A stretch of DNA of 64,000 nt, taken from assembly GCA_963775535.1 (NCBI GenBank), contig CAVZJH010000057.1:3818-67817 (forward strand), written 5' to 3'. The position numbers and the translations under genes were made by a program. Below the pieces are notes generated by a model. The model saw only the letters and a list, made by a program, of their open reading frames with translations. It did not search any database and was not told the origin of the DNA. Below, piece by piece: positions 3,439-60,656 of this stretch; within the stretch, counting starts at the first letter, position 1; the number at the start of each line of letters is the position of its first letter. This stretch comes from an uncultured bacterium. Its GTDB lineage: Bacteria; Armatimonadota; UBA5829.

Positions 3439-6400
3439 ATGTGGTTAACCAACGTATCTATACGGCGCCCGATATTCATAATCATGTTCGTGCTCGCGCT
3501 GATCGTGCTGGGGCTTCAGTCTCGCTCGAAGATGCCGCAGGAGCTCAATCCCAAGGTCGACATACCTTACGTGACTGTAATCACGACCTACGCGGGCGCC
3601 GGACCAAACGAAATAGAGACCCTGGTCAGCGAGCCGATCGAGAAAGCGGTGACCTCCGTCGGCAACCTGAAGAACGTGACGTCCACTTCCCAGGACGGCG
3701 TATCGACGGTTGTTCTGGAGTTCGAGCTGGGAACCGACCTCGAGGCCGCGACCGCCGATGTGCGAGACAAGGTTGCCTCGATCAGGGCGGACCTGCCCAA
3801 GGATTCCGACGAACCCAAGATCATGAAGCTCGACATTTCCTCCATGCCGATCATGACCATAGGGCTCGAGGGTCCTCTTCCGCCCAAGGAAATGCGAATC
3901 CTTGCGGATGATGTCGTTTCCGACAGGCTGGCGAAAGTCGGCGGCGTGGCTTCAGTAAACGTCGTCGGCGGCGATCAGCGCGAGCTCTCGGTTGCGGTCG
4001 ACAAGAACCGCCTCGACGCCTACGGTATCGGTATCGACAAGGTCGTCGCCGCCGTCAAGAACGCGAACTTGAACGTCCCCGCCGGCTCCATAAAGGAAGG
4101 CGCCAGGGACTATTCGGTGAGAACGGTCGGCGAATACCAGAGCGCAGAGGAAATAGCCAACACCCGGCTCTACATCGCCGGCACGCATGACAGCCCCGGC
4201 GTGGTCGTACGCGTAGGCGATATTGCCGACGTCAAAGATACTGTCGCCGAGCCCGATATGATTACCCGTCTCAATGGGCGCCCCAGCGTCGTCTTCTCCG
4301 TTCAAAAGCAGTCCGATGCAAACACCGTGTCTGTCGCGGACGGGATCAAGAAAGAGCTCGCCGACATGCAGCCGATCCTGCCCCACGGCGTGCATGCCGT
4401 TATAGCTATCGACCAGTCGACGTTCGTCAAGGACGCGCTGCGCGATGTCAACAAGAGCCTCCTCGAAGGAATCCTGCTGGTCGTCATTATCGTGTTTTTG
4501 TTCCTGCATACGGCGAGAGCGACGTTCATCGTTGCTATTGCGATTCCGACATCTCTTATGGCTACGTTCATCCCCATCAGCGGGTTCGGGTTTACGCAGA
4601 ACACGATGGTCATGCTGGCGCTTTCGCTGGTGGTCGGTATTCTGGTCGACGACTCGATTGTCGTCCTGGAAAACATAGAACGGCACTTGAGGCTGCGCGA
4701 GCATCCGGAGGAAGCGGCCTTAAACGGACGCTCCGAGATCGGTCTGGCGGCTATCACCATCACGATGGTCGACATTGTCGTGTTCCTTCCCATCGCGTTT
4801 ATGGGTGGAATCGTGGGCCAGTTCTTCAGGGAATTCGGTATAACGGTTGCCACGGCTACAGCGTTCTCGCTTCTGATGTCGTTCACGCTCACCCCTATGC
4901 TTGCGTCCAAGTGGATGAGAAGCGAATCGGAAAAGGAGCGCAACGAAGAAGAGATGGAGAGGCGCCGTATCGGAGGCACATCCACCACCGTGGACAAAGT
5001 GAACTTCGTGGCCGGGCGGTTGTTTGGTGTCCTCGAGCGATTCTTGAGGGGATTGGACCGCAAATACCGGGGCGTTCTCGAGTGGGCGCTCCACAACAGA
5101 TTTCTGACAATCGTCATCGGGTTCGTTTCGCTGCTGACTGTATTTGCGTTATCCGTGCCGCTGCCGAAGCTCGGTGCGGGTCCGGCTCAGATGAAGATGG
5201 CGGCGCCGAGAATCATAATCGCCCTGCTTGCCCTTGGGCTTTCCGCGATTGCGATGGCTGTGGACAAAAAGAGCAAAAAGACGGCGCTCGGGTTCGGCTT
5301 GTTGACGGCGTTCATCGCGCTCACGATTTATCTGCCGTTCGGCTTCGGGTTCTTCCCCGTGGTCGACCAGAGCCAGCTCGGCATCCTTATAAGAACCGCG
5401 CCGGGCACGTCACTTATCGCCACGGACAAGGTAGTCAAAGATGTGGAAACGGTCCTTGCCCAGGTGCCTGAAATTCAGAAGCGCCCCTATGTAGTCTCTG
5501 ACAGAAATTTGCTTTTGCCGTGGACGTGGTTCAAGCATCACAGCGAGACTCAAACGGGTTATTACCTCAGCGTTGCGGGCGCGAGCTCGGCGAGTATAAT
5601 GGGCGCCAGCGACAGCGGCCCCCAATACGGCTACATCAGCGCCAAGGTGGTAGACAAGCAGTTCCGCAAGCGCGGCATTGAAGATATTGTCCAGTGGATT
5701 GCCGAGCGCACCGCGCTGATACCCGGCGCCGAGATGATCTCCGTTTCGTCCGCCTCCGGCAGCGGCCCAGGCAACAACATCCAGAAAGAAGTCCAGGGCC
5801 AGAACATGGACGACATCATCAAAGAGGCCAATCGCGTTAAGGGCGTCATGAGGAAGGTCCCGGGCGCGGTCGATGTTGATATATCCTACAAACCCAGCAG
5901 GCCTGAACGCCGGATTACCGTGGATAAGCTCAGGGCTGCGCAGTTGGATATGACCGTTACGCAGGTTGCGACAAACGCGCGCACGGCCATCGATGGCGAT
6001 GACACGGCCAAATTCCGCGAGGGAGGCACTGAATATCCCATCAGGGTCCACTACGTGCAGGATCAGCGCGACAAGACTTCCGACGTCGAAAATATGATCG
6101 TCGGCGCAAAAGACGGCGCACCGGTCTACCTCAACGACGTGGCGAGCGTAGCCTACGACGATGCTCCGACCAAGATCGACCGCAAAAACCGGCAGAGGGT
6201 AGTTTACGTCACTGCGGACCTGGCCAGGGGCGCGGAAATGGGTAACGTGAACCAGATGATCGACGGCACGCTCAAGTATACTCCGTGCGTCGCGGGCACG
6301 ACCATCGGCACCGGTGGCTCGGCGCAGATGATGATAGAGAGCTTCGGCTACATCGGTGCGGCGATGGTGCTGGTGGTGCTCCTGGTTTACATGTTGATGG

Positions 6401-18490: not shown

Positions 18491-20009
18491 GTAAGAGTTC
18501 AGGATAGGTGAGTATTTGGGGGCTGCACATCTGAAGGCGACAATTTCCATGACAGTATCATCCTTTAGACAAAGGTACTTTTGGTGCCTTTGTCTAAGTG
18601 GGATGTATGAGTGAGTCGGATGGTATTTCCCGAGCAGAGCTCGTGGCCATAATAGTGGAGTTGCGCCGTGCAAACGCCGTCTTGCAGGAGCGGGTGGAGT
18701 TTCTTGAGGCTGAGGTAGAGCGCCTGCGCTCTCAGCTTCCCAGCGGTGGGACGAAAGTTGTGCCGGAGTGGGTCAAGCCAAACCGCAAGGAACGTCGCGA
18801 GGCCGAACGCAGTGAGCGCAAGAAGCGTAAGAGCTCATTTGTACGTCGTCGCGAGATTCCTACCGAGGTCCATGAGCACGCTCTTGAGCAGTGCCCGAAG
18901 TGCGGGCGTAAGCTGTGTGGCGGATGGATACACCGGAGACGTCAGTATGTGGAGATTCCGGAGACTCCGGTGCGCATAGTCGAGCACAGGATCATAAGGC
19001 GCAAATGCGGGGTATGCGGAACACAGTGCACTCCCAAAGTGGATCTTTCGGCGGAGGTGTTGGGCAAAGCACGTGTGGGGGTGAGGCTTATGAGCTTCAT
19101 TGCTTATCTGCACACGGTCTGCCGGGTTCCATTAAGGACGATAAAGGGCCATCTAAAACTGATATATGGCCTGGATTTGGGCCTTGGGGAGCTTTCCGAG
19201 TTACTTCATGCGGTTTCGAAAGCGGCGGAGCCGGAATATGTTTATCTTCTTGACGAGATTCGTGGTTCTCCTGTGGTGAATGCCGATGAGACTGGTTGGC
19301 GCGAAGACGGCATCAACGGATATATATGGAGCTTCTCCACTCCGGAGCTGCGTTACTTTGTATACCGCAAGAGTCGTTCGGGTGAGGTGGCAAAGGAAGT
19401 TTTGGGTGAAGATTTCGATGGGGTTGTAGTCAGTGACTTCTACTGTGGCTACAGCGTCCTTTTGACGCGTCATCAGCGCTGCTGGGTGCATTTCTACCGT
19501 GACCTCAAAAAGCTCGTCGAGGCATATCCATCGGAGGTATCGGTCGGGGAGTGGGTAGACAAGGTTCTGAGCATATACAATCAGGCAAAAGAGTTCTCAA
19601 GCGATGATGAGCGAGTCCGGATAAGGCAGCGGGAGATATTCGAGCAGGTATTGCTTGAAGTTGCCAGTCCATATCTAGGCACTGATAAGCCCCAACGGAT
19701 ATTGGCCCAACGTATCGAGAGGTTCCTGCCGGAGTTATTCATCTTTGTCGAGGACCCACGTGTGCCGTCTGAAAACAATGCTGCCGAGCGGGCAGTTCGA
19801 CCTTGCGTAATAGCTCGAAAGGTCAGTGGCGGAACCCGCTCAGCAAAGGGCTCTGATACAAAGGCAGTCCTAATGAGTATGTTCGGGACGTGGCTGCTCA
19901 GGGGCCAGGACACAATAAGCATGTGCAGGCAAATGCTCATCTCGGCCAATCGTCTCAAATGCCAGGTGACAGACAAAGCACTTCTCTCTCACGTAGCCTG
20001 AACTCTTAC
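18491..20009 (+). mobile_element. Complete IS66-family insertion sequence of the single-ORF (ISBst12-like) type, 1519 bp, with 8-bp target-site duplication
   Basis: Terminal inverted repeats GTAAGAGTTCAGGATAGGTG (18491-18510) and GTAAGAGTTCAGGCTACGTG (reverse complement of 19990-20009) match at 18 of 20 and begin with GTAAG. Flanked by identical AGTTCACC at 18483-18490 and 20010-20017. Single transposase ORF inside. An 11-bp perfect hairpin (TTAGACAAAGG...CCTTTGTCTAA, 18565-18597) abuts the tnp start codon. Confidence 0.85.
18598..20001 (+). CDS. IS66-family transposase (TnpC-like, 467 aa)
   Basis: N-terminal leucine zipper, CPKCG...C..CG zinc-finger, then motifs ADETGW, NGYIWSF, SDFYCGYS, CWVHFYRD, NNAAERAVRPCVIARKVSGGTRS, all characteristic of IS66 TnpC. 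Confidence 0.9.
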   Translation: MGCMSESDGISRAELVAIIVELRRANAVLQERVEFLEAEVERLRSQLPSGGTKVVPEWVKPNRKERREAERSERKKRKSSFVRRREIPTEVHEHALEQCPKCGRKLCGGWIHRRRQYVEIPETPVRIVEHRIIRRKCGVCGTQCTPKVDLSAEVLGKARVGVRLMSFIAYLHTVCRVPLRTIKGHLKLIYGLDLGLGELSELLHAVSKAAEPEYVYLLDEIRGSPVVNADETGWREDGINGYIWSFSTPELRYFVYRKSRSGEVAKEVLGEDFDGVVVSDFYCGYSVLLTRHQRCWVHFYRDLKKLVEAYPSEVSVGEWVDKVLSIYNQAKEFSSDDERVRIRQREIFEQVLLEVASPYLGTDKPQRILAQRIERFLPELFIFVEDPRVPSENNAAERAVRPCVIARKVSGGTRSAKGSDTKAVLMSMFGTWLLRGQDTISMCRQMLISANRLKCQVTDKALLSHVA

Positions 20010-41874: not shown

Positions 41875-42855
41875 GTGCAGCGGCGCGCCCGGCTCCCTGC
41901 AATAGATCTCACCCGGAGGCACTACTTGGAGGATATCGCCATTCGCCTGGAGGGCTTGACGCGCGACTTCGGCGCGGTCCGAGCCGTCGACGGCCTGACT
42001 TTGGACGTCCCCGCGGGCGTTGTCTTTGGTTTTCTCGGCCCGAACGGGTCAGGAAAGACTACCACAATCCGGCTCCTGCTCGGCTTACTGGAGCCCACTT
42101 CCGGGTCGGCGAAGGTGCTGGGGCTGGATTCAATAAGAGACGCCGGTGAGATCCGCTCGCGCTCCGGAGCTCTGCTGGAACACACCGGGCTCTACGAGCG
42201 GATGAGCGCCCAGGACAATCTTGAGGACGACGCGCGCATCTGGCAAATGACTGAACCCGATCGCAGCGCGCGGGTCAGGGAACTCTTGGACCAGGCCGGG
42301 CTGTGGGAGCGGCGAAAGGAAATAGTCCAGGGGTGGAGCAAGGGAATGAAGCAGAAACTGGCCATTGCCCGCGTCCTGATACACCGGCCATCCCTGATAT
42401 TTCTGGACGAGCCTACTTCCGGGCTCGACCCGGTGGCTGCGGCGGCGCTGCGCGACGATCTGGCCGAGCTCGCCGCGCGTGAGGGCGCGACAGTCTTCCT
42501 GACGACCCACAACCTTTCAGAAGCCGAGAGACTGTGCCCCCAGGTCGCTGTGATCCGCAGCGGCAAACTGCTGGCGGCGGGCAGGCCCGAGGATATTCGC
42601 GCTGGGGATGGGGGCGCCAAGGCCGAGGTGATTGGTGAAGGCTTCACGGACGATCTGCTTGCGCGGTTACGCGAGCTGCCCGATGTGTTATCCGTCCAGG
42701 CGAACGACGGCCATCTGATGATCTCTCTCAAGGGCGATGTCAGCCTGGCGCCTTTGGTCAGCCTGATCGTTGGCTCGGGGGTCAGGTCGAAGAGGTGCGC
42801 AAGGTTCGCGCCAGTCTCGAAGAGACATTCCTTACATTAATGGAGGAATCGCGCT
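41875..42855 (+). CDS. ABC transporter ATP-binding protein; frameshift in a G-run near 42780
   Basis: Walker A (GPNGSGKTT), ABC signature (LSGGMKQ-type: WSKGMKQKLAIARVL), Walker B (IFLDEPTSGLD). The true C-terminus (GQVEEVRKVRASLEETFLTLMEESR) is in another frame and ends at ~42855. Confidence 0.85.
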
Positions 42856-48981: not shown

Positions 48982-49280
48982 CTCTCCCGGACGCGGCTTT
49001 TGAATGTAGCTCTGCCGGGCAAGAATTCATCCGGCGCACTTCGGCGGGTCAACATTGGTTCTCCTCCGGAGGGTGAGTTAGTCTGAATTACCCACAACCG
49101 AGTCGGAGTTATCCCAGGGTGAAACCTTGACCCGGGAAAGAAGGGCCCAAGCTCAGGTTGACACCAGGCGCAGTGGACCTAACCATGAAGTAGACAAAAC
49201 TATATAAGAAACTGCCAGGGTTTTGGTGACACCCCGTGTGTTGACCCAAAGCCCCTTTGGGCTATGTACAGGCTGTATTC

Positions 49281-52200
49281 ATGAGTCTCGAAAAACTACT
49301 GCAACTCAGTGATGAACATTCCAAGTCGCGCGAAGCGCTGGATGCTATGAAAAGAGGGGCCCGGCTCCTCCAGATCGAAGGCCTCGCCGCCGCCGCAAAA
49401 GGTTGGATGCTTGCGGGCGCGTTTGCCGAGACCGGGCGGGCGATGCTGGTTCTGACCTACAGTCAGGAGCAGGCCGAGCGGATCGCCGAAGATATGCCTC
49501 ACTACGGCGTTGCGAAGGACCGGGTAATGTTCTTCCCGCCCAGCGACGCGATGATTTACGAGGAGGGCCCGCCAAACTTCAGCGTGATTGGGGAAAGGCT
49601 GGCGGCCCTGCACGCCCTCGCGTCCGGCAAAGGCGCCGTGGTTGTCGCTCCCATAAACTCCGCTCTGCGCCGCACCATGCCCGTGAATACACTCATTCGC
49701 TCCTACGCCGCGGTCAAAACGGGCGATGAGATGGACATGGACAAGTTCGCGAGGCTTCTGGTGAGCATGGGCTATGAACACGCGGACGTGGTGGACAGGC
49801 ACGGCGAGTTCAGCCGCAGGGGTGGGCTTATAGATGTGTTTGCGTCCAACGAAGAGCTGCCGCTGCGCATCGAACTGTTCGGAGATGAAGTGGAGAGCAT
49901 CCGGCATTTCGACAGCGCGACCCAGCGATCTACCGACAAAATGAGAGAGGCCCTCATTCTGCCTGCGCGAGAGGTGTTGATCGACACGGACAATGCACCC
50001 AGGGCCGCTGTCCGGATGCGAAAGGAACTCGAGGGTCAGTTAAAGAGCCTGATCGAGTCCGGAGATTCTGAAGCTGCCAGGCGTCTCAAGGAAAAGCTGG
50101 AAGACGACATACTGCGCATCGAGAGCGGGGCGTACTTTGATGAGATAGAATATTATCTGCCCTACCTGCACCCCGAAGAGGTCAGCATATTCGATTACCT
50201 GCCGAGGACGCAATCGTGGTGCTCGATGAGCCTGCGCAGATCAAGTCACACTGGGAGCAGCACGAAGAGAGTATGCTGGAGACGCTGATCAATCGCGCGG
50301 GCAGGGGGCTTCTCCTCGCCTCGCAGCAGCGGCAGCACGTTCACTTCGAGTCCGTCATAAAGCGCGCCCTGGCGGAAAGGCACGGGCTGGCATTCGCGCT
50401 TCTGCCCAGGCCTGTGAGCTGGGCGAGGCCGGATGCGAGTGTGGCTATGCCTTCATCTCCGATGGATTCGTTCGGAGGTCGGGTAGAGGCCGCGATGGAC
50501 CAGGTGAAGACATGGCTCGGGAATAATCTGTGCGTGATCATCGCATCCGCGCAGGACACCAGGATGCTGGAGATTCTCGAGGAGTTTGGTATCGAGGCCG
50601 TTCATCTGGAAGAGGCCGGAGATGTAACGCCCGGAGTTTATGTTGCCCATTCGTCCCTGCGGACCGGCTACAAACTGCAGGATCAGGGACTGATGGTGGT
50701 CACGGACTCGGAGATCTTCGGCGAACAGCGTCTTCATCGCCCGCGAAAGGCTTCACACGAAGGAATTCCAATCTCGAGCGTGCTCGACCTCAGGGAAGGT
50801 GACTACGTCGTTCACATCAACCACGGAATCGGCTTCTACCGCGGGATTCACAAGCTGAACACCCAGGGAGTTGAGCGCGAGTATCTGCTTTTGGAGTATG
50901 CGGGGAACGACAAACTGTATGTGCCCTCCGAGCAGATCGACCGCGTGCAGAGGTACATCGGAGGCGAGGGAACTCCGCCCACGGTACACCGCATCGGAGG
51001 CAGCGAGTGGCTGCGCACTACCAAGCGTGTTTCCAAGGCCGTTCAGGAGATGGCGAAGGAACTTGTCGAGCTGTACGCGTGGCGGCAGGCTCTGGAGGGA
51101 CACGCTTACGGCCCGGATACCCCCTGGCAGCAGGAAATGGAGTCCGCGTTCCCTTATACCGAGACTCCCGATCAGATGGACGCCATTCTCGACGTTAAAA
51201 GAGACCTGGAAAAGCCGCAGGCGATGGACAGGCTTATATGCGGAGATGTGGGTTATGGCAAGACCGAGGTCGCCATTCGAGCTGCGTTTAAGGTTGTGAG
51301 TGAAGGTAGGCAGGTTGCTGTTCTTGCGCCGACCACGGTCCTTGCTCAGCAGCACTTCAATACATTTACCGAACGGCTCGCCGCGTTTCCGATCAATGTC
51401 GATCAGCTCTCGCGGTTTCGTTCGAAATCGGAGCAGAAGGCGACAATCGAGGGCCTCAAATTCGGAACTGTGGATGTCGTAATCGGCACTCACCGGCTGC
51501 TCTCGAAGGATGTGGAGTTCAAAGACCTCGGCCTGCTCATTACCGACGAGGAACAGCGCTTCGGGGTCCGGCACAAGGAAAAGCTGAAGCAGCTCAGAAA
51601 GACCGTGGATGTGCTCACAATGACAGCTACCCCCATCCCGCGCACGCTGCACATGTCCCTTTCCGGGATACGCGACATGAGCGTGATCAACGATCCGCCC
51701 GAGGGCCGGATGCCGATCAAGACGTTTGTAAAGGAAGCCGAGTCGGATGTCGTTCGCGAGGCGATTGTGAGAGAGCTGGACCGCGGCGGGCAGGTGTTCT
51801 TCGTGCATAACAGGGTGGAGAACATAGGCCATGTGGCCGATCAGGTGCAGAAGCTGGTTCCCTATGCGCGCGTGGACACCGCGCACGGTCAGATGCCGGA
51901 AACCGAGCTCGAGCGCGTGATGATGGACTTTTACGAGCATAAGTTCGATGTCCTGGTATGCACGACCATTATCGAGAGCGGACTCGATATTCCGAACGCG
52001 AACACCATTGTCATCAACGAGGCCGATAAGCTCGGTCTCGCGCAGCTATATCAGCTCAGAGGCAGGGTCGGGCGCTCCGACCGCCAGGCCTACGCTTACC
52101 TCATCTACAAGCCGGACAAGGTGCTGACCGAGGTTGCGGAGAAGCGGCTTGCGGCCATTCGCGAGTTCACCGAACTTGGAAGCGGATTCCGGATTGCAAT

Positions 52201-52804
52201 GAGGGATCTGCAAATCAGAGGCGCGGGAAACCTGCTCGGCTCCGAACAGAGCGGGCAGATGTCCGCAGTTGGTTTCGATCTCTACTGCCAGCTTCTTACC
52301 AGGGCAGTCTCCGAACTGAAGGGCGAAGATGTCGAAGAGATCCAACTGCCGCCTGTGGATTTGCCGGTTGATGCGTTCATTCCACAGGGTTACATGCCCA
52401 CCGAGGCGCACAGAATCCTCTTCTACAAGAAGATGGCCGCGGTCAAGAGCGTGGAGGATGTTCAGGCGGTGCAGGACGAACTCGAGGACCGTTTCGGCGA
52501 CCCGCCCAAGCCGGTCTGGAACATGCTCGCGATCATCAGGATGAGATTGAGGTGCTACGAACTCGGCATCGCGAGCATAGGCACGCTCAAGAACCAGATT
52601 CAGGTGAAGTTCGGCGACGGTGTGCGGCTGGACCCGGAGTTCTGCCGCGAACTGATCAAGCTCCACCGCCGGCACTGGTTCGAGGCCGACAGAATGGTCA
52701 TTAACCCATCGAGCCCCAGGATAATATCGGAGGTGGAAGATATGCTGGAGGTCCTTGCGCGCGCATTCAAGCGGATGCAGGCGAAGTACGCGCAGATGTA
52801 CTAG
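49281..52804 (+). CDS. mfd: Transcription-repair coupling factor Mfd; one frameshift near 50216-50288
   Basis: UvrB-interaction N-domain, then DEAD/helicase motifs (GDVGYGKTEVA, DEEQRFGV, TATPIPRTL, QLRGRVGRS) and TRCF C-terminal domain. Frame 3 gives way to frame 2. Possible TTGACC-18-TATGTA promoter at ~49241-49270. Confidence 0.9.
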
Positions 52805-53813: not shown

Positions 53814-56150
53814 CTAAGCACTGCAGAAGGCCGTTATTTCGACAGTTCCCGTGAAACCGTCCACGGTCAGCTTTCGGCGATCCTTAACGGCGGCGAGGAT
53901 TCCGTGGCAGCCCGTAACGATGGGAACGCCATATTCCCTCGCCTGTAACGCGTGCGCCGAACCGAACTCTTCCTCTTGGGAGATCAACGCTCCGGCCGTT
54001 GAAAGAAACGGGGTCCATGCCAGACTCAGCTCTTTCACGATCAGGATATCGCCCCGCTCGATCTCGCCCGCCTCCTCCAGCGTGTGCACAACCCTGGCGG
54101 GTCCCGAGGCCGCGCCCGGAGCGGCCGCGCGGCCCTTGACTAACTCCTGCGGCTGATCCGCAGCCGGTTGATCCACCGTGTTTTCGTCAGAGAGCAGGAC
54201 ATCCGGCGGCGAAAGCCGCCGCTCCAGCCATAAATCGTGTTTTCTGCGGGCTATGCGGGTCGCGACGGAGTTGCGCGCGGCCTTATCCGGCTTTGCGGGA
54301 AGCGCAAGAAGCTCGTCCAGTGTGAGGCAGAATATATCATTTTTCTCCGCGAGCACGCCCGAGCTGTGCAGCCTGCCTGCATGTTCAACAAGCGCCAGCC
54401 TCAGACCCGTGCACGCCAGCGCATATATCTGCTCGGCTTCGTTGTGATTCGTAAGAATGCTGCGTGACAGACGGAGGAGCGACTGCAACGACCGGCGGGC
54501 TCCGCCCTTGAAGAGAGCGGCGGCTTCACCGGCAGCCTCATCTGCCGAAGCCTGGGCTGCGCAGTGCCGCGTCACAAGCGTCGGCCGGCTGCCCTGCCTT
54601 GCGACAGCCCCTATGATTCGGAAAACAGCGTCGTCATCCTCCACCCAGCTTTTCCACGAAGCCACGTCGTAAAGCTCGGAGACCTGGGCAAACGAATAAC
54701 CATATTCACGCGCGAAATGCTCTACCTCACGCTTGTAGTGATGCCGCCATTTCTCGTCACCGAGCTTTCCGTTGTCATTGGCGATCCGGAAGCGTTCTCC
54801 GAGCTCCTGCAGCCGGGCATCTCGCAGCACGGTAGGGTCAGGCAGGCCTTCGAGAAGCCTCGCGCAAAGAGAAGCATCGGTGACGGTGGCGTTCAATTCC
54901 CCGGTAAACGCAGCATCCAGGCTGGACATTCGGGCTTCCCACGAAGCCGCGCGGCGCACCGTATCGGCGGCATCGACAAGGGCGCCCAGCAGCCGGGCAT
55001 GGTCCAGACCTGAGAGGTCTGTCTCCAGCACCTGCGAACAGCGCTGCCTGAGCGCCGTCGCGGCCTTTTTCTGCCACCTCTCCAAGAGCCTGCGGGCCGC
55101 AGCAGCCTGCTTTCTGTCGAAGTTGCCCGCATCTTCGACGCGCCGATACACATAACCGTTGATCGGGTTCGCAAACAAGCCGGGCTTCGTCTTTCCATCG
55201 ACCGGCTTCCAGAGCAGGCTTCTCGAGAAATAGGATATGGGCTGATCTGAAACTCGCCGCCAACGGGTCTTGCGTTCTCCTTCTTTCGGCAGCCAAGCCG
55301 GAGAAAAATGCGCAGGCGGCGTGCAGAGCGGCTGCGCCTGCAGCATCCACAGCTTGCCGCCGTCGTAAGCCCAGTCCACCTCTACCGCGGATCCGAGGAC
55401 ATCTTCAGCGAGCAAAGCTTTTTCCGCGATGAGTAGTGCACCGTCCGGGTCCAGAGTATCTCGAGTATTCACCGAGCGCAAGTCGCGAAGGTCGACCTCT
55501 ACGAATGCGGAATCCACCGAGTCCCAGGCGCGCGAGACGCGCATAAGCACCTTGTGCGGATCGCCGGTGACGGTGCAGGCGGTTTTCGCGCTTCCGAACC
55601 AGTCCGCATCGATCATCTGTTGAACGATCACGGCCATAGCAGGCTCGGATTTGTTTTCCACGCTGGCTCTGTAAGCCGCAGCCTTGCCATTCCAGAGGGA
55701 AGCCCACACGCGTTTGATTGCTACGCACAAGGCCTCGAAGCCCGAAACATTTAGATAGCTTTCGTATGCTCCGGGAAAGCAGAAGTCCGGCAGTCCGTTC
55801 TCCAGCGCGGACGCGCGCACGGCAACCCTTGGGTCCGCGCAGCCGGCCTGCCAGGACAGCCGTTCGTAGGCTTCGGATATTGTCTGCCGAACATCGTCCG
55901 GGATATCTTGAGTCATGATCGCAGACCGGATGCGTTCCCGATCCTCCGCTTCCTGGGCCGCGGAGGCGACGGCGCGGGCTCCGCTGGCCCAGAGATGGGA
56001 GCGGTAAGCGTCTGCGCTGATAACGAAGCCCCTCGGCACAGCAAAACGAGCCGTGATCAGTCTCGAGAGATCGACTGCCTTGCTGCCGGTCTTGCGACTT
56101 CGCTGCGCGTCCACAAGCGGAACTACTAAGGAAATGCCTGAAGATGACAT
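53814..56150 (-). CDS. PEP-utilising-enzyme family protein: PpsA-like N-terminal ATP-grasp domain plus C-terminal swivel phosphohistidine domain, no PEP/pyruvate TIM-barrel domain (rifampicin-phosphotransferase-like architecture)
   Basis: N-terminus SLVVPLVDAQRSRKTGSKAVDLSRLITARFAVPRGFVISADAY matches the PPDK_N nucleotide-binding domain. C-terminus GDILIVKELSLAWTPFLSTAGALISQEEEFGSAHALQAREYGVPIVTG is the mobile His domain. The ORF ends right after it. Confidence 0.75.
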   Translation of the reverse strand: MSSSGISLVVPLVDAQRSRKTGSKAVDLSRLITARFAVPRGFVISADAYRSHLWASGARAVASAAQEAEDRERIRSAIMTQDIPDDVRQTISEAYERLSWQAGCADPRVAVRASALENGLPDFCFPGAYESYLNVSGFEALCVAIKRVWASLWNGKAAAYRASVENKSEPAMAVIVQQMIDADWFGSAKTACTVTGDPHKVLMRVSRAWDSVDSAFVEVDLRDLRSVNTRDTLDPDGALLIAEKALLAEDVLGSAVEVDWAYDGGKLWMLQAQPLCTPPAHFSPAWLPKEGERKTRWRRVSDQPISYFSRSLLWKPVDGKTKPGLFANPINGYVYRRVEDAGNFDRKQAAAARRLLERWQKKAATALRQRCSQVLETDLSGLDHARLLGALVDAADTVRRAASWEARMSSLDAAFTGELNATVTDASLCARLLEGLPDPTVLRDARLQELGERFRIANDNGKLGDEKWRHHYKREVEHFAREYGYSFAQVSELYDVASWKSWVEDDDAVFRIIGAVARQGSRPTLVTRHCAAQASADEAAGEAAALFKGGARRSLQSLLRLSRSILTNHNEAEQIYALACTGLRLALVEHAGRLHSSGVLAEKNDIFCLTLDELLALPAKPDKAARNSVATRIARRKHDLWLERRLSPPDVLLSDENTVDQPAADQPQELVKGRAAAPGAASGPARVVHTLEEAGEIERGDILIVKELSLAWTPFLSTAGALISQEEEFGSAHALQAREYGVPIVTGCHGILAAVKDRRKLTVDGFTGTVEITAFCSA

Positions 56151-56404
56151 GGGTAATGCTCAGTTGATTATAAGTGCGAGGCGTGAGGGTGTCAATGGCG
56201 TCCCGGCGTCGCGTTCGGGATACGTTCTCTTTTTTCCCAAAGGAAAAAAAGGAGTAATTTAATGGCTGGCTGCAAAACCACCTGTCAATAGTGCTGTGAT
56301 TGGCACGATTCTTGCACCTATATAAAGTGAGAAAAACATCTTTTTCTCCTTCCTTAAAGTGTTGTGGCTTTACTCGCATTGAAGGCTCCCCGCCTTCATA
56401 CGCG

Positions 56405-56438
56405 CCCCGCCCGCAAATTGCAGGCGGGATTTCTTTTG
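56405..56438 (+). terminator. Stem-loop CCGCCCGC-aaattgca-GGCGGG plus a T-tract; possible 3' end of a short plus-strand transcript
   Basis: Seen directly. About 100 nt downstream of a TTGGCA-15-TATAAA promoter-like pair at ~56301-56329. Confidence 0.35.
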
Positions 56439-56521
56439 TACGGAGTGTGGACGCTGCCCCGGGATTATCCGAAACCGGCGTTTTAACAAGACATGCGCCA
56501 TGCCAAGACTGTTGTTGCAAA

Positions 56522-58272
56522 GGCAATATGTCCTCTTAACTGCAAAGGGAAAATGTCCTCTTAGTGTATCGTAACGTTACGTTATTCCGGCTTTTGTCGG
56601 GCGAGTTTGGAGTGGAATATCCTCCAAGCTCGCCAGAGCATCGTGCGCTGATTCGAGCATCTCTAATAGAGACTCTCCCACCTGCGATTCCTGCCAAGTG
56701 TCCGTGCGCTGGTCGAAATAATCCTGCATTTCGGTGGTGGCACCCTCCAGCAGAGCCGATGCCGCCTTAATCATGGCTTTCCACCTGCGCAGTCCCGGCA
56801 CTGATGGGATTGACCCGAATGTCGCCTGAGCGCATCTACCACGATAAGCGGCTTGCCGCTCGCCATTGGTTTGATACTTCCTCCTCCTTGGCATGAGCCG
56901 CTCCTTTCACGCGATGCGCGTTGCTCCTATTTGTCTTCCTGGTCCGGACCTTCTCATGGAGCTACCTTCGATAGCACTGGCCGATTTGGATGCCATATAC
57001 ACCCACTGGCTTTCCATAACAGCGCGGACCCCTTTTCTCCTTCTCCTTGCCCGGATCGGTTCCGCGATCTCATTGGCAGGTGCTGTGGCTATCAGCCTTT
57101 CCTCGTAGTAGACCCGCCAACTGCCATCTAGGAGTTGCCGCAGTTCGGCTTTTAGGCCGGCATAGCTTCTCTTGCCGGGTCCAGGTGGAATGTCTATGAC
57201 GATCCCGTCGAAGCGTATCGCGTTATCGTTGCCCACGCGGGCCCCATACTCAAGGGAAAGAACGCGCTCCAGATCAAGTCCACGCCTGGGCTTTCTCCAA
57301 GCGCTCTGCGTATCCTGCGGTGCCACCGTAAACTTCTCGTTGAACTCCCGCACGAATATCTCGGCGTATGCGTTTGCTCCAGCAATATCTGTGATACCTT
57401 CCAAGCTCAACATCGCGCACAATCTGTCCTGGAGCGTCTTGAAGAGCCTTTCCACTCGACCTTTTGCCTGTGGTGTCCTCGCAAAGATAGCCTCGATACT
57501 CAGAGATTCCAGCGCCGAGCCGACCTGTGTCGGGTCCTGGCGCCCAGCCAGTTCCTCTTCTATACTCCAGAAGTCGTCGTTGCGCTTGAGTGATGAGTGA
57601 CGATCCTGGTAGACGCTCGCCGGAATGCCGTGGCTTGTCACGACACGACGCAGCAGTTCAAGATATGCCCACGAGCACTCCGCTTCCGTAAAGAACAGCC
57701 CCAAAACCTTGCCCGTGGCGTTATCCATGGCAGCCATCGCGCAGCACGCTTCCATACCAGGGCCAAACCACCGGTGGGGGCTGCCATCCCAGAGCATCAT
57801 CAGTCCCTCGCTCACTTTCCTTGGCCTTCTCTTGTGATGCTTCCTCGGTCTGCGCTTCATCTTAGGCTTAATCCCATCCCCGCGACGAATCCCACGAACC
57901 GTCTCCCGTGAAAGAGATATCCCCTCACGCTCCACGAGCATTTCGTGGAAATGACTGTCGTTGAACAGGCTATAGCGTTCTTCGGAGAGGGCCAACACTT
58001 TCGAGCGCACTTCATCGCTGATCTTATTCCCGGGACTCCGGCCCCGGTTGCCGTGCAGCAGACCCGCGACGCCATCGCCCTCAACCGACTTTCTAAGCCG
58101 CCTGGCCTGACGGTAGCTCACTCCCATCTTCTCTGCCGCCTCACTCAGAGCCACACGACCCTCCAATACCATCCGCAGCAAGTGATGCCGCGCTACATCT
58201 CGCTCACTAATCTCCATGCCTCCATTCTACAGGAGGACATTATCGCACTGCAGTTAAGGAGGACATAATCGC
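56522..58272 (-). mobile_element. Insertion sequence (~1.75 kb) encoding an rve-type DDE transposase (ISNCY/IS481-like), bounded by ~42-bp imperfect inverted repeats
   Basis: Left inverted repeat at 56522-56563 versus the reverse complement of 58230-58272: GCAATATGTCCTCTTAACTGCAAAGGGAAAATGTCCTCTTAG versus GCGATTATGTCCTCCTTAACTGCAGTGCGATAATGTCCTCCTG. Each repeat holds two copies of ATGTCCTC(C/T)T. A 20-bp direct repeat ACATGCGCCATGCCAAGACT lies 9-12 bp outside each end (56490-56509 and 58282-58301). Confidence 0.7.
56907..58217 (-). CDS. DDE transposase with N-terminal HTH and rve (integrase core) domain, 436 aa
   Basis: HTH (MGVSYRQARRLRKSVEGDGVAGLLHGNRGRSP), basic linker, then a core carrying the candidate catalytic acidic residues (WDGSPHRWF ... 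). Start codon lies 13 bp inside the right inverted repeat. Confidence 0.75.
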   Translation of the reverse strand: MEISERDVARHHLLRMVLEGRVALSEAAEKMGVSYRQARRLRKSVEGDGVAGLLHGNRGRSPGNKISDEVRSKVLALSEERYSLFNDSHFHEMLVEREGISLSRETVRGIRRGDGIKPKMKRRPRKHHKRRPRKVSEGLMMLWDGSPHRWFGPGMEACCAMAAMDNATGKVLGLFFTEAECSWAYLELLRRVVTSHGIPASVYQDRHSSLKRNDDFWSIEEELAGRQDPTQVGSALESLSIEAIFARTPQAKGRVERLFKTLQDRLCAMLSLEGITDIAGANAYAEIFVREFNEKFTVAPQDTQSAWRKPRRGLDLERVLSLEYGARVGNDNAIRFDGIVIDIPPGPGKRSYAGLKAELRQLLDGSWRVYYEERLIATAPANEIAEPIRARRRRKGVRAVMESQWVYMASKSASAIEGSSMRRSGPGRQIGATRIA

Positions 58273-58437
58273 TATGCTACCACATGCGCCATGCCAAGAC
58301 TTGACACCACAAGCTCAACAGCGCTATTCTCTTTACAGTTATATAAGTTATTGTAAGGGCGCGGCTGGGTCTCACGTCAGAACGGATGAGTGCCCAACCG
58401 ACCGGCAACTATTTACCACATAGAGAGAACATCCTTC

Positions 58438-59502
58438 ATGAAACAACTGCTATATCGTTTTCTAAGAGCGCAGCAGGCGGGATTGATCCTGGTCATTCTC
58501 CTGCTAGGTTTACTGCTCACTGTGTTCGCCGGGTCGCACACGGACCAGGCAACCGGCGCGCAAGTCAACAATTTTCTGAACTCATACACCCTCATGCAGA
58601 CGATCACCGACGCCTGCTTCTTTGCCATCATGGCTATTGGAGTGACAATGGTCATCATCTCCAATGGAATAGACCTATCCGTCGGCTCGACATACGCGCT
58701 GGCGGGGGTAACGATGGCGATGGTCCTGCGTAGTTTCGGCACTACGGCGACCCTGCCTACGCTGGGAATCGCAATCGTGTTGTGCCTGGGCATTGGTATT
58801 TTGTGCGGACTGATCAACGGCGTAATGGTGGTCGGACTGCGCGTGCATCCCTTTATTATTACATTAGGCACGATGTGGATATTTCGAGGGATCGCATTCG
58901 TAGCCAGCAAGGCCGAGAGCATTCTCGTGCCCAACAGCCTGATCGGCGTGGCAAAGAATTCTCTGGGGCTGCGCGCGGAGATATACCCCGTGCCTATGCT
59001 CGTTATGCTGGTGATAACCATTCTGGGGGAAGTCTACCTTCTTAAGACGGTCATGGGCCGTAACGTCTACGCGGTCGGTGGGAACCCCGAGGCCGCGCGT
59101 TACTGCGGCTTGAACACAAACCGCACGTTGATCGGAGTCTACGTGATCGCCGGCTTGACCGCGGGCATCGCAGCCCTGATAGGAAGCAGCTTCTACGGCT
59201 CATCTTCTTGCGCTGACGCCACCGGCTATGAGCTCTATGTAATCGCCTCCGCTGTAGTAGGAGGGGCGAGTTTGACTGGAGGCAAGGGCAGCGCGGTGGG
59301 CGCCATGCTCGGAGCGCTGCTTATCGTAATGATCAGGCAGTCGATTCGCACGCTGCACTTCGATCAGAACTATGAGTGGATCATCATCGGCTCCGCCACC
59401 ATCATCGCCGTGGTGCTGGACCGAGTGAACGCGCAACTTGCAACCAAGCGAATGGCGCTGATGGCTGGTAAAGTTGAGGCTCAGAAAGTCAAGACAGCCT
59501 GA
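58438..59502 (+). CDS. ABC sugar transporter permease (RbsC/XylH-like)
   Basis: Likely start MKQLLYRF. Ten TM segments and the conserved GG.SLTGGKGS motif. No ATPase gene is adjacent; the IS lies immediately upstream. Confidence 0.8.
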   Translation: MKQLLYRFLRAQQAGLILVILLLGLLLTVFAGSHTDQATGAQVNNFLNSYTLMQTITDACFFAIMAIGVTMVIISNGIDLSVGSTYALAGVTMAMVLRSFGTTATLPTLGIAIVLCLGIGILCGLINGVMVVGLRVHPFIITLGTMWIFRGIAFVASKAESILVPNSLIGVAKNSLGLRAEIYPVPMLVMLVITILGEVYLLKTVMGRNVYAVGGNPEAARYCGLNTNRTLIGVYVIAGLTAGIAALIGSSFYGSSSCADATGYELYVIASAVVGGASLTGGKGSAVGAMLGALLIVMIRQSIRTLHFDQNYEWIIIGSATIIAVVLDRVNAQLATKRMALMAGKVEAQKVKTA

Positions 59503-59596: not shown

Positions 59597-60656
59597 ATGG
59601 AGGTTAACCAAGTGAAAAGGAACGTTCTAGTCGCTGCCGCAATCTGTGCGATAGTCTTATCTCTAATGGCAGGATGTGGCAAGAAGCAGGCCGGTAAGTC
59701 TGAAGCCGCAGCCGGAAAGCAGCCGGGCGGCTCCTCGAAGACCATTCGAATTGGAATGATTGCAAAGAGCTCAATGAACCCCGTCTTCCTGTCGGCTCGC
59801 ACAGGGGCCGAAGCGGCCGCGAAAGACCTGGGAAAGAAGGTACGGCATCAACATCATCATCGACTGGCGAACTCCCTCCAGCGAAGACGGCCAGATCCAG
59901 GCTCAGCGAATTGCTCAGATCGTCAACGACGGTGATAACGCAATCCTGATCTCCTGCTCGGACGCAGGCAAGGTCAATGGCGCGATCAATGACGCTGTGG
60001 GCCGGGGCGTGCAGGTGATGACGTTCGACAGCGATGCTCCCCAGTCCAAGCGATTTGCGAGCTACGGCGTGGACGACATCAAGACCGGCGGGAGTGTTAT
60101 GAAAGAACTTGCCGAGCAGCTCAAGGGGAAGGGCAATGTGGCGATCCTTGCCGGGAACCAGAATGCCCCCAACCTGCGCAGGCGCGTGGACGGCGTCAAG
60201 AAAGAAGCCGCGAAGTACCCGGGAATCAAGCTGGTTGGCACATTCTACAACATCGAGACCCCTCAGGATGCGGCGGCTGAAGTCATTCGAGAGCAGAACG
60301 CTTATCCCGAGATCACGGGATGGGCATTTGTGGGCGGATGGCCTTTGTTCACCAAGACGCTGCTCACCGACCTGAACCCCAACAAGGTCAAAGTCGTATC
60401 CGTGGACGCTCTGCCGGCTGAGCTTCCCTACGTCGCGAAGGGGATTGCCCCCGTGCTTCTCGCTCAGCCGACTTACATGTGGGGCTACGTTTCCGTTGGG
60501 AAGATCATCGACAAGATCTACCTGAAGAAGAGCGTTCCCGAGCTAAACCCGATGGAACTCGTTCGCGTGGACAAAAACAGCCTCGGCAGTTGGGCCCGGC
60601 AGCTCAAGGCATGGGGATTCAAGGACGTGCCGGATGAGTATCTGAAAATGAAGTAG
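59597..60656 (+). CDS. Periplasmic sugar-binding protein (type I PBP, RbsB-like lipoprotein); frameshift near 59835
   Basis: Lipoprotein signal (LVAAAICAIVLSLMAGCG), IRIGMIAKSSMNPVF..., then after the shift ILISCSDAGKVNGAINDAVGRGVQVMTFDSD...GNVAILAG. Confidence 0.75.

Follow-up and report, generated by a model that had tools for sequence, protein, structure and literature searches.

An ISTde1-subgroup insertion sequence from an uncultured bacterium, and the placement of its long-duplication relatives beside predicted promoters

Members of the IS1202 family that generate long target-site duplications do not insert at random: on sequence evidence, most of them abut the upstream edge of a predicted sigma70-type -35 hexamer. 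The central result of our analysis is this positional rule, which holds with single-base precision against the -35 edge of predicted promoters that fire outward from the element. The insertion sequence (IS) that we describe here lies in the window, the whole 64-kb stretch of DNA analysed, and belongs by sequence to the DDE insertion sequences of the IS1202 family, ISTde1 subgroup. It adds an ordinary new member to a family already described, and the 20-bp repeat that flanks it needs no new mechanism. The element is autonomous and, as far as we can tell, has no earlier name.

Our comparisons establish its family membership, its ends, its duplication and the positional rule. All promoters referred to below are consensus predictions from sequence. 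Taken as a whole, the explanation that we regard as very probable is that an autonomous ISTde1-subgroup IS made a simple insertion with a 16-bp stagger at a non-random, promoter-abutting site. The features of the locus are collected in Table 1.

Table 1. Features of the insertion sequence and its target (positions in the window)
Feature	Position	Strand	Description
Whole insertion sequence	56510..58284	-	1775 bp, 5'-TGT...ACA-3' tips; transposase on minus strand
Target-site duplication, left copy	56494..56509		TGCGCCATGCCAAGAC, 16 bp, identical to 58285-58300
Target-site duplication, right copy	58285..58300		abuts host -35 box
IRR, transposase-distal end	56510..56563	+	terminal TGT and two direct 23-nt sites TGCAAAGGnAAnATGTCCTCTTA
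Palindrome	56567..56584		GTAACGTTAC core, between orf2 and inner IRR site
orf2, 105 aa	56577..56894	-	small, basic, all-helical protein
Transposase, 436 aa	56907..58217	-	N-terminal HTH domains and DDE core (D144, D205, E256, Q263)
IRL, transposase-proximal end	58231..58284	-	terminal TGT and two direct ~21-nt sites ending ATGTCCTCC
Targeted host promoter (predicted)	58301..58330	+	-35 TTGACA 58301-58306, 18-nt spacer, -10 TATTCT 58325-58330

Transposase, orf2 and the ends of the element

The transposase matches the NCBIfam model NF033594 'ISNCY family transposase' at 350.6 bits (cut-off 250) and contains the Pfam domains HTH_29/28/23. A tblastn search aligned it with the annotated transposases of ISKpn21 (E 7e-39, 87 % coverage, about 30 % identity) and ISEsa1 (E 5e-48). 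[quoted passage not shown] The invariant residues are described signatures of the IS1202 family, which has two extra conserved Asp between the first two D of the triad (D165 and D166 here), and the 6-8-residue insertion is one of its ISTde1 subgroup. Transposition in this family by copy-out-paste-in via a circular intermediate has been reported only for ISKpn21.

The closest database relative of the transposase shares 86 % protein identity over 97 % of the query, and a scan of genome contigs retrieved only acidobacterial relatives that are ~30 % identical. Exact-protein look-ups with the 436-aa transposase, the 778-aa neighbour, P0025, P0127, P0126 and P0124 returned no record. The annotation of the source genome gives the transposase as 415 aa, with its start at an internal GTG. 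A second copy of the IS (L083/L085), the one further copy retrieved, is 99.94 % identical over 1764 nt and ends at a contig edge, so that it offers an IRL-side flank only. The window copy carries D166N at a position where the sister copy and all relatives have Asp, and with this substitution it may be inactive.

Between its ends the IS contains the transposase gene and orf2, and nothing else. The start of orf2 lies 12 nt past the transposase stop and is preceded by an AAGGAG ribosome-binding site. An open reading frame (ORF) at the same place in L022 is 58 % identical to orf2, and L024 likewise has a counterpart; both relatives also keep the palindrome. The homologues of orf2 (n=23) are all found on ~1-2-kb, IS-sized contigs, with many residues invariant. 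A Pfam search of orf2 gave no family. Its AlphaFold model (mean pLDDT 74.7) has three main helices, and a Foldseek comparison of the model with the PDB gave nothing below E = 0.98. An Rfam search of 55900-58700 gave no RNA family match. The IS1202 family is described as having a single transposase ORF, a description from which the conserved orf2 departs; a few members with an extra ORF are known (ISKpn21, ISKpn65 and ISRel10).

The outer limits of the element are set by several features that agree. Identity with the second copy begins exactly at TGTGG, which fixes the boundary at 58284; the complementarity of the inverted repeats extends to 56510 and 58284; and the TGTG.../...AACA tips are common to relatives L022 and L024-L028. 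The outer arms, TGTGGTAGCATAGCGATTATGTCCTC and TGTTGTTGCAAAGGCAATATGTCCTC, are identical at 20/26 positions (ungapped complementarity to 56510 and 58284, 26 nt, 77 %) and carry ATGTCC at positions 19-24. The first-pass annotation had described inverted repeats of 42 bp with identical 20-mers lying 9-12 bp outside them; the arms are really about 54 nt long and touch or overlap the 20-mers, leaving no offset. Among the options that it offered, that of larger unrecognised termini was the correct one.

Its observation of two motif copies per end also stands: ATGTCCTCYT occurs four times, twice per end and in inverted orientation (0.16 occurrences expected). These copies sit inside 21-23-nt subrepeats spaced 25 or 26 nt apart, at 58257-58277 and 58231-58251 in IRL (spacing 26) and at 56516-56538 and 56541-56563 in IRR (91 % identity, spacing 25). 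All relatives have this two-site layout, the 31 %-identical acidobacterial ones among them, and it is visible in the published table of ISTde1-group inverted repeats. A second internal transposase site per end has been described for ISAjo2/ISAba32 (PMC10132070), and the suggestion that the duplicated motif is a transposase binding site, still a prediction, matches this family feature.

Target-site duplication and the host operon

The identical 20-mers reported earlier, ACATGCGCCATGCCAAGACT, are present at 56491-56510 and 58282-58301, and they are the only matches in the window with 3 mismatches allowed (0.01 expected). Each consists of the 16-bp duplication and 3+1 flank or tip bases that match by chance (ACA on one side, T on the other). 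Four extra matching bases would be expected by chance in about 1.5 % of cases, and one of the four (A) belongs to the preferred CAA beside the duplication. The duplication measures 16 bp, or 17 if the tip A is counted as target, or 15 if the G after ACA is assigned to the IS. Duplications in relatives are similar in length: 16 bp in L059, L060 and L061, 16-17 bp in L003 and L004, and 15-16 bp in L012, L014 and L044. L014 also shows a 6-bp extension of its duplication for which we have no explanation. Published lengths are 15-18 bp for the ISTde1 group and 24-29 bp for the IS1202 group (10.1101/2022.12.17.520857; PMC10132070). The duplication in the window, 16 bp (17 with the shared A) between conserved tips, falls within the ISTde1 range. 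The objection that the repeat is too long for a DDE transposase thus loses its ground, because 16 or at most 17 bp is normal for this group.

We propose that the transposase would bind the tandem pair of sites within each ~54-bp end and cleave at the TGT/ACA tips. The ends would then be joined to the target with a 16-bp stagger, whose repair would yield the flanking duplication. The uninterrupted target would have read ...AACAAGACA, one TGCGCCATGCCAAGAC, then TTGACACC.... A neighbouring gene occurs on one other contig (L088, 2.4 kb), which ends short of the IS position.

Two other accounts of the repeat were weighed against this one. If the duplication truly comprised 20 bp, as the exact match over 20 bases and the family members with 18-bp and 24-29-bp duplications would allow, the IS would measure 1771 bp (56511-58281) with tips GTTG.../...TACC. 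We consider this very unlikely: the identity of the IS copies starts at TGTGG, three bases beyond the boundary so proposed, TGT/ACA is outermost in all relatives and in the same register to the ATGTCC block, and the duplications that could be scored in relatives all measure 15-17 bp. Barely credible, in our judgement, is a site-specific element that recombines conservatively at an att-like core or a repeated 20-mer target. Identical 20-mers are indeed very unlikely to arise by chance, and the element does show target selectivity. However, its sole enzyme is a DDE transposase, with no tyrosine or serine recombinase domain, and the window has no further occurrence of the 20-mer. The duplications of relatives are also of unrelated sequence. 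The sister copy in L085, examined on its IRL side, lacks the 20-mer and has an unrelated 16 nt beside the same tip; a different flank is what the first-pass annotation had itself named as refuting its reading. It means that the 20-mer is not an att site, and an integrase- or att-type element was rejected.

Downstream of the IS lie genes for an RbsC-type permease (PF02653; ATG at 58438) and a Peripla_BP_4 binding protein. The first-pass annotation had noted this pair without an ATPase gene. The absence is borne out, with no sugar-type (CUT2-type) ABC ATPase in the operon or the whole 64-kb window, where the only ABC_tran ORF encodes a single-domain protein of 321 aa (41875-42840); the pair itself is less intact than described, the binding-protein gene being split by one frameshift near 59836-59841. 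A frameshift also affects mfd, and both, like D166N, may be assembly errors. The missing ATPase gene was the reason for suggesting that the insertion had displaced or deleted it; that the insertion, or a rearrangement resulting from it, removed the gene we now regard as extremely unlikely. Both copies of the 16-bp duplication are intact, as is typical of a simple insertion in which no neighbouring DNA is lost, so that the ATPase gene was not removed by the IS. In addition, the predicted operon promoter comes immediately after the IS and ahead of the permease gene, and hence no gene was there. The insertion would thus be a simple one, after which the adjacent ABC operon keeps its own predicted promoter.

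Position beside predicted promoters and how it may be recognised

The predicted promoter in the window has 10/12 consensus matches and reads into the permease gene. In L085, the IRL is followed by 16 nt, then TTGACA-18-TAGACT, then hpf reading away. In both copies, therefore, the duplication abuts the TTGACA -35 box of a predicted promoter directed away from the transposase end of the IS.

The same arrangement recurs among the insertions tabulated by Siguier et al., where a promoter-like site falls exactly at the IRL-side boundary of the duplication in 16/36 ISTde1-group and 9/15 IS1202-group cases, while any other single offset has 0-2 such sites; in the ISTde1 group there is none at offsets 1-33. 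TTG stands at the boundary in 22/36 ISTde1-group members (p 2e-28) and 12/15 of the IS1202 group (p 1e-20), against a background of ~2 %. A TAnnnT hexamer begins 38-40 nt from the tip in 30 of 40 unique IRL-side flanks (p about 1e-39), compared with 4/35 flanks on the IRR side. What lies behind these predicted promoters, according to Pfam and tRNA scans, is a varied set of genuine host genes or tRNA operons. ORFs beside IRL read away from the element in 18/29 cases, a crude test confounded by spurious ORFs in GC-rich DNA; neighbour orientation was instead judged by Pfam checks of individual neighbours and tRNA scans. About a quarter to a half of the insertions, L004 for example, have no recognisable promoter at this position, and in a few cases (ISSmsp1, ISUba1 and ISTna1) the promoter is found at the IRR end.

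The suspicion of target selectivity voiced in the first-pass annotation was therefore right in spirit, although the selected feature is a predicted promoter and not the 20-mer. We found no report of promoter targeting by the IS1202 family, in a search whose reach left out most subscription journals and TnPedia; the two IS1202-family papers do not describe a promoter-abutting position.

Could the pattern arise without targeting, if insertions were random and persisted only where they do no harm, in intergenic DNA upstream of promoters? Selection always acts on the IS copies that remain to be observed, and an insertion ahead of a promoter should be tolerated. Yet single-base precision, with 16/36 sites at offset 0 and none at 1-33, is beyond what selection would produce, as are the fixed distance of the -10 hexamers and the difference between the IRL and IRR sides. 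We hold such a filter to be most improbable as the source of the rule.

A further group of flanks bears on how the site might be found. Positions 17-22 are uninformative in 34 acidobacterial flanks, yet TGnTAnAnT is conserved at positions 37-45. That this clade keeps the distance to an extended -10 without conserving a -35 suggests recognition of promoter-bound RNA polymerase. We infer that the transposase would find its site through the promoter-bound RNA polymerase holoenzyme rather than through a DNA word. In this proposal, which we advance tentatively and at somewhat less than an even chance, the long-duplication IS1202 and ISTde1 branches are promoter-targeting transposons whose transpososome docks on promoter-bound sigma70 holoenzyme with IRL facing the promoter. 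Candidate docking surfaces would be sigma region 4 or the alpha C-terminal domains. One cut would fall at the upstream edge of the -35 box, and the second would lie farther upstream, by either one and a half or two and a half turns of the helix. The IS would thereby be placed with IRL and its duplication against the -35 edge, and the promoter would fire away from it. Such a position would be a safe haven, in which the core promoter and the 16 bp ahead of it are spared. If the rule is confirmed, this preservation of the original DNA immediately ahead of the -35 box gives a rationale for the unusually long duplications.

The main competitor accepts that targeting is real and supposes that the transposase itself reads a TTGACA-like DNA word resembling the TGTCAA tip of IRR, with no role for RNA polymerase. 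In many insertions the (T)TGTCAA beside the duplication equals the IRR tip of many members, and the IRR side shows a weaker, symmetric TTG preference (9/36), which would fit a transpososome of two-fold symmetry that reads the target DNA. However, the IRR tip of the window IS is TGTTGT, not TGTCAA, and both copies still lie at TTGACA. TTG is mostly accompanied by a -10 hexamer at 16-18-nt spacing, and the acidobacterial flanks, uninformative at the -35 position and conserved at the extended -10 (37-45 nt), are hard to fit to a word read there. We judge direct reading rather unlikely, though to be taken seriously.

A different idea was that the 16-17-bp length of the duplication serves as the spacer of a junction promoter in the circle, for which IRR would supply an outward-facing -35 (many members have TTGACA there) and the IRL tip a -10-like sequence. 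It was set aside because the tip here is ACAACA, not TTGACA, and IRL tips are inconsistently -10-like.

Docking on the holoenzyme, to return to the proposal we prefer, leads from the positional rule to a prediction, that of a bacterial transposase that reads RNA polymerase. If confirmed, the rule would explain why these elements are found at operon heads and before tRNA genes. It would also let the elements serve as natural promoter markers in uncultured phyla, and possibly as a tool for placing DNA beside promoters.

Comparison with known systems

Described examples of the ISTde1 subgroup include ISTde1, ISArba1, ISGba3, ISHahy13 and ISCARN53/62/63 (10.1101/2022.12.17.520857; PMC10132070 Table 7). 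[quoted passage not shown] Also shared are the TGT/ACA tips, the ATGTCC block at about 19-24 and again about 25 nt inward, the 15-18-bp duplication, and a host range that includes Armatimonadetes and Acidobacteria. It differs in its conserved orf2, absent in most members, and at 1775 bp it stands at the long end of their size range.

Several more distant systems resemble the element in part. Tn7 and other TnsB-type ends have TGT...ACA tips and several transposase-binding repeats per end, and the ISAjo2 transposase has been modelled on TnsB (PMC10132070). A Tn7-like transposon was nevertheless rejected: the window IS has no TnsA, TnsC or TnsD/E target-selector genes, its duplication is 16 bp and not the 5 bp of Tn7, and Tn7 leaves target choice to separate proteins. 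The IS481 and IS3 families have a distantly related DDE core and TGT tips, but K/R instead of Q after the E and short duplications; the match to the IS481 model NF033577 is weak (75.3 bits against a cut-off of 224), and this family was rejected. So was IS21, with 17 bits for NF033546 (cut-off 160) and no ATPase domain in orf2.

A parallel in target choice comes from the ISAjo2/ISAba32 subgroup (ISAba71, ISKpn21) of the same family, whose members insert at a distance of 5 bp from the XerC arm of dif/pdif sites. The transposases are homologous (about 30 % identity), the tips are TGT/ACA, each end has a second internal site, and insertion is directional, with IRL and the duplication abutting the site of a host protein. 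In contrast, that subgroup has its own duplication of 5-6 bp, a Xer site as landmark and no insertion in the catalytic domain. The positional rule, if confirmed, would unify the long-duplication elements with these dif-targeting cousins. Combined with Xer-site targeting in the ISAba32 subgroup, promoter targeting would, if true, make the order IRL, duplication, landmark protein a family-wide rule.

A likeness also extends to eukaryotes. [quoted passage not shown] They differ in being eukaryotic retroelements, whose integrase contacts TFIIIB or Pol III subunits. The likeness is a functional analogy only, sequence and mechanism being unrelated. If our proposal is true, the long-duplication branches of the IS1202 family would be the first case in bacteria of elements that, like Ty3, target transcription initiation complexes.

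Family, genes and ends of the insertion sequence

The window IS encodes a transposase and a second protein, orf2 (see the table of features). The 436-aa transposase has HTH domains at its N-terminus and matches the NCBIfam model NF033594 ('ISNCY family transposase') with 350.6 bits (cut-off 250), while scoring far under the NCBIfam cut-offs for IS481, IS3, IS630 and IS21. Its matches in plasmid records are annotated as transposases of 'ISNCY-like element ISKpn21' and 'IS1202-like element ISEsa1'. In an alignment with ISKpn21, ISEsa1 and closer relatives, D144, D165, D205, E256 and Q263, the last lying seven residues past the Glu, are invariant, and the window clade has 6-8 additional residues between the second Asp and the Glu. 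Siguier et al. (bioRxiv 10.1101/2022.12.17.520857) give these features as signatures of the IS1202 family and, within it, of the ISTde1 subgroup. The element is an apparently new member of this subgroup.

Features of the window around the element (IRL, transposase-proximal end; IRR, transposase-distal end)
Feature	Window position	Strand	Remark
IS66-family transposase ORF	18598-20001	+	PF03050, E 1.9e-40; unrelated to the studied element; presumably the first IS implied by the first-pass annotation
mfd	49257-52804		one frameshift; overlapping ORFs 49257-50288 and 50216-52804
TTGGCACGATTCTTGCA	56300-56316	+	perfect sigma54 -24/-12 consensus
Hairpin and T run, CCCGCCCGCAAATTGCAGGCGGGATTTCTTTTGT	about 56398-56440	+	GC-rich; ~85 nt beyond TTGGCACGATTCTTGCA
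20-mers, ACATGCGCCATGCCAAGACT	56491-56510; 58282-58301		identical
Target duplication, TGCGCCATGCCAAGAC	56494-56509 = 58285-58300		exact, 16 bp
ACA of the 20-mer	56491-56493; 58282-58284		host flank; IS tip
T of the 20-mer	56510; 58301		IS tip; host flank
IS tips	56510; 58284		IS length 1775 bp
Palindrome	56567-56584		perfect GTAACGTTAC core, just downstream of orf2
orf2, 105 aa	56577-56894	-	start 12 nt past transposase stop; AAGGAG ribosome-binding site ahead
Transposase ORF, 436 aa	56907-58217	-	
Codon 166	57720-57722	-	Asp166 to Asn
TTGACA	58301-58306		followed by 18-nt spacer
TATTCT	58325-58330		
Permease ATG	58438		
Sugar-binding lipoprotein gene	59597-60656		one frameshift near 59836-59841

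A second copy of the same IS, 99.94 % identical over 1764 nt, lies on contig_10039 of ENA ERZ25039519 (L085). The single nucleotide difference inside the transposase gene replaces the Asp166 of the L085 protein (P0121) with Asn in the window. All other aligned sequences have Asp at residue 166, which is one of two extra conserved acidic residues of the IS1202 family; through this substitution the window copy may be catalytically impaired. The orf2 gene is an uncommon feature, conserved in and restricted to near relatives of the window IS. Its 23 homologues all lie on IS-sized contigs, and searches for family and structural matches returned none. The palindrome next to orf2, which may be its operator or a regulatory site, is conserved in L022 (two copies) and L024, relatives that also carry orf2.

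The identical 20-mers and duplicated end motifs reported by the first-pass annotation are real: the 20-mer occurs twice in the window, with no other match at up to 3 mismatches (0.01 expected), and ATGTCCTCYT occurs four times (0.16 expected), two copies per IS end and inverted between the ends. Every ATGTCCTCYT copy sits inside a 21-23-nt subrepeat, with subrepeats spaced 25 and 26 nt apart. The claimed gap of 9-12 bp between the 20-mers and the inverted repeats does not exist; ungapped inverted complementarity (26 nt, 77 %) reaches both IS tips. The arms thus measure about 54 nt and start with TGT, which bears out the suggestion of larger unrecognised termini. The duplicated end motif is a known family trait, because elements of the ISAjo2 type, with TGT/ACA tips, carry the inner part of the IR a second time, internally, near each end (PMC10132070), and the proposal that the repeated motifs serve as transposase binding sites is consistent with this. 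All relatives that we examined have the motif, even acidobacterial elements with only ~31 % protein identity. Six relatives (L022, L024-L028; transposases 51-77 % identical) all start with TGTG and end with AACA, their tips in the same register to the ATGTCC block as in the window IS.

Each 20-mer consists of the 16-bp target duplication plus ACA and T. A 17-bp duplication is possible, as the A beside the duplication could belong to either IS or target. The IS1202 family is split by duplication length into classes of 5-6, 15-17 and 27-28 bp (bioRxiv 10.1101/2022.12.17.520857), and 16-17-bp duplications are known for ISTde1, ISCARN53/62/63, ISShha1, ISHahy13, ISVbsp4 and ISVisp7 (PMC10132070). 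Among relatives with both flanks present, the duplication is 16 bp in L059, L060 and L061, 16-17 bp in L003 and L004, and 15-16 bp in L012, L014 and L044. Thus the window duplication is not abnormally long for a DDE transposase, and an att-like core is unnecessary since 16 bp is normal for this family. In L085, identity with the window starts exactly at TGTGG at the IRL tip; the preceding base differs, the 16 nt beside IRL are different (CGTGACCGATTGCGCC in transposase orientation), and the 20-mer is absent. On this one available side, the L085 flank is the observation that the first-pass annotation itself had named as refuting.

Two relatives show unusual flanks. In L014, the flank identity (2338-2359 and 4058-4079) spans 22 bp, made up of the 15/16-bp duplication, an A and TGTCGC, the first six IRL bases, which recur in the host flank past the right-hand duplication. 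Such a length would rarely arise by chance (about 3e-4). L009 has, around the same IS, the left flank of the L003 site and the L004 right flank. Either IS copies recombined or the assembly is chimeric; the case illustrates how duplications are lost in the family.

The ABC operon and its surroundings

The insertion is simple and deleted no ATPase gene, because the duplication is intact on both sides. A predicted promoter of the ABC operon (TTGACA and TATTCT) separates the IS from the permease gene, which also disagrees with the view that the IS displaced or deleted an ATPase gene. The search for a missing ATPase elsewhere found no sugar-type ATPase encoded within the 64-kb window, so the operon appears to be natively without one. 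The frameshifts in the sugar-binding lipoprotein gene and mfd reflect either pseudogenes or indel errors of long-read assembly, the latter because contig names suggest that the related ENA assembly is a long-read metagenome assembly. On the other side of the IS, the segment 56300-56440 (+), with its sigma54 consensus and hairpin but no Rfam match, may represent a sigma54-dependent small RNA of ~110 nt, or else a leader that the IS has severed from the ABC operon.

IRL-side duplications abut predicted outward-firing promoters

At L085, IRL is followed by 16 nt, TTGACA, 18 nt and TAGACT with TG before it, and then by a ribosome hibernation factor gene pointing away from the IS. This is the promoter geometry of the window copy at another locus. 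To the published flanks in Supplementary Table 1 of Siguier et al. (bioRxiv 10.1101/2022.12.17.520857) the same applies: in most long-duplication entries the IRL-side flank ends in (T)GTCAA directly before the duplication, often with TATAAT 17 nt further out, in several cases ahead of tRNA genes. We scored as promoter-like any site with at least 4/6 matches per hexamer, at least 9/12 overall and a 16-18-nt spacer. In a few remaining entries the promoter is off by one or two bases, and in ISSmsp1, ISUba1 and ISTna1 it lies on the IRR side instead.

Promoter-like sites in published IRL-side flanks of insertions with duplications
Site	ISTde1 group (36)	IS1202 group (15)
Exactly at duplication boundary	16/36	9/15
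Any other single offset, -6 to +33	0-2 (2 at -1, else 0)	0-1
TTG at boundary (background about 2 %)	22/36, p 2e-28	12/15, p 1e-20

For an independent test on a second flank set, IS tips were located in all fetched loci and only unique flanks were kept. In 30/40 flanks on the IRL side and 4/35 on the IRR side, a hexamer TAnnnT with 4/6 or more matches to TATAAT starts 38-40 nt from the tip, where 16 + 6 + 17 nt would place it (background 0.4 % per position; p about 1e-39). Beyond the IRL flanks lie unrelated host genes, directed away from the IS and starting at 50-130 nt from its tip; their products include an AMP-binding enzyme, an amino-acid permease, cytochrome c, a CCG-domain protein, hemerythrin and TonB-type outer-membrane proteins; two loci (L002 and L042) have tRNA operons. 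Window-clade flanks (n=7) have TTG at the -35 position in 5/7 and one base off in 2/7. The 34 acidobacterial flanks carry no information at positions 13-36, the -35 position included, and read TGnTAnAnT, an extended -10, at positions 37-45.

Together, these results show a single-base rule, by which the IRL-side duplication abuts the upstream edge of an outward-firing sigma70-type promoter. The target selectivity suspected by the first-pass annotation thus holds for the promoter-edge position and fails for the 20-mer, given the different L085 flank. The rule is absent from the Siguier preprint, which contains neither GTCAA nor TTGAC and mentions 'promoter' four times, all on other matters, and a full-text literature search, with most subscription journals outside its coverage, found no report of it. 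It is apparently unreported, not certainly new, and this family-wide rule carries the main interest, rather than the element itself.

Two further observations concern these flanks. In L051 (about 1385-1425), a family member (IRL TGTCGCGGCC) lies 15 nt from the IRR tip of another (...CCTTGACA), and such TTGACA-like tips may themselves be targets. In the acidobacterial loci L020, L060, L061, L017 and L050, 50-58 nt separate the IS tip from the start of the host ORF on the IRL side. This start coincides with the predicted transcription start or lies a few bases from it, pointing to leaderless mRNAs.

Possible basis of promoter targeting

The insertion position would reflect targeting, not selection, since differential survival can explain neither the one-base precision nor the orientation bias. 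We propose that the transposition machinery recognizes a promoter bound by RNA polymerase holoenzyme and not a DNA word, since the distance stays constant to the promoter elements in use in each host, -35 plus -10 in most phyla and, in the acidobacterial set, an extended -10 with no -35. Direct reading of DNA by the transposase is a serious, though less likely, rival to this model. It would account for the many family IRR tips that read TGTCAA, the identical word to the flank, and for the weak, symmetric preference for TTG seen at IRR (9/36); the fixed spacing to differing promoter elements argues against it. Insertion at this position could benefit both sides: the host would keep the core promoter with 16 (or 27) bp of native upstream DNA and no gene would be interrupted, and the transposase gene would stand back-to-back with an active promoter.

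A similar arrangement is seen in the dif-targeting ISAba32 subgroup, in which IRL and a 5-bp duplication likewise lie directly against a landmark, the XerC arm. It is tempting to regard this as a parallel to the promoter-abutting rule and, in our reading, the duplication classes of 5, 16 and 27 bp are apart by about one helical turn.
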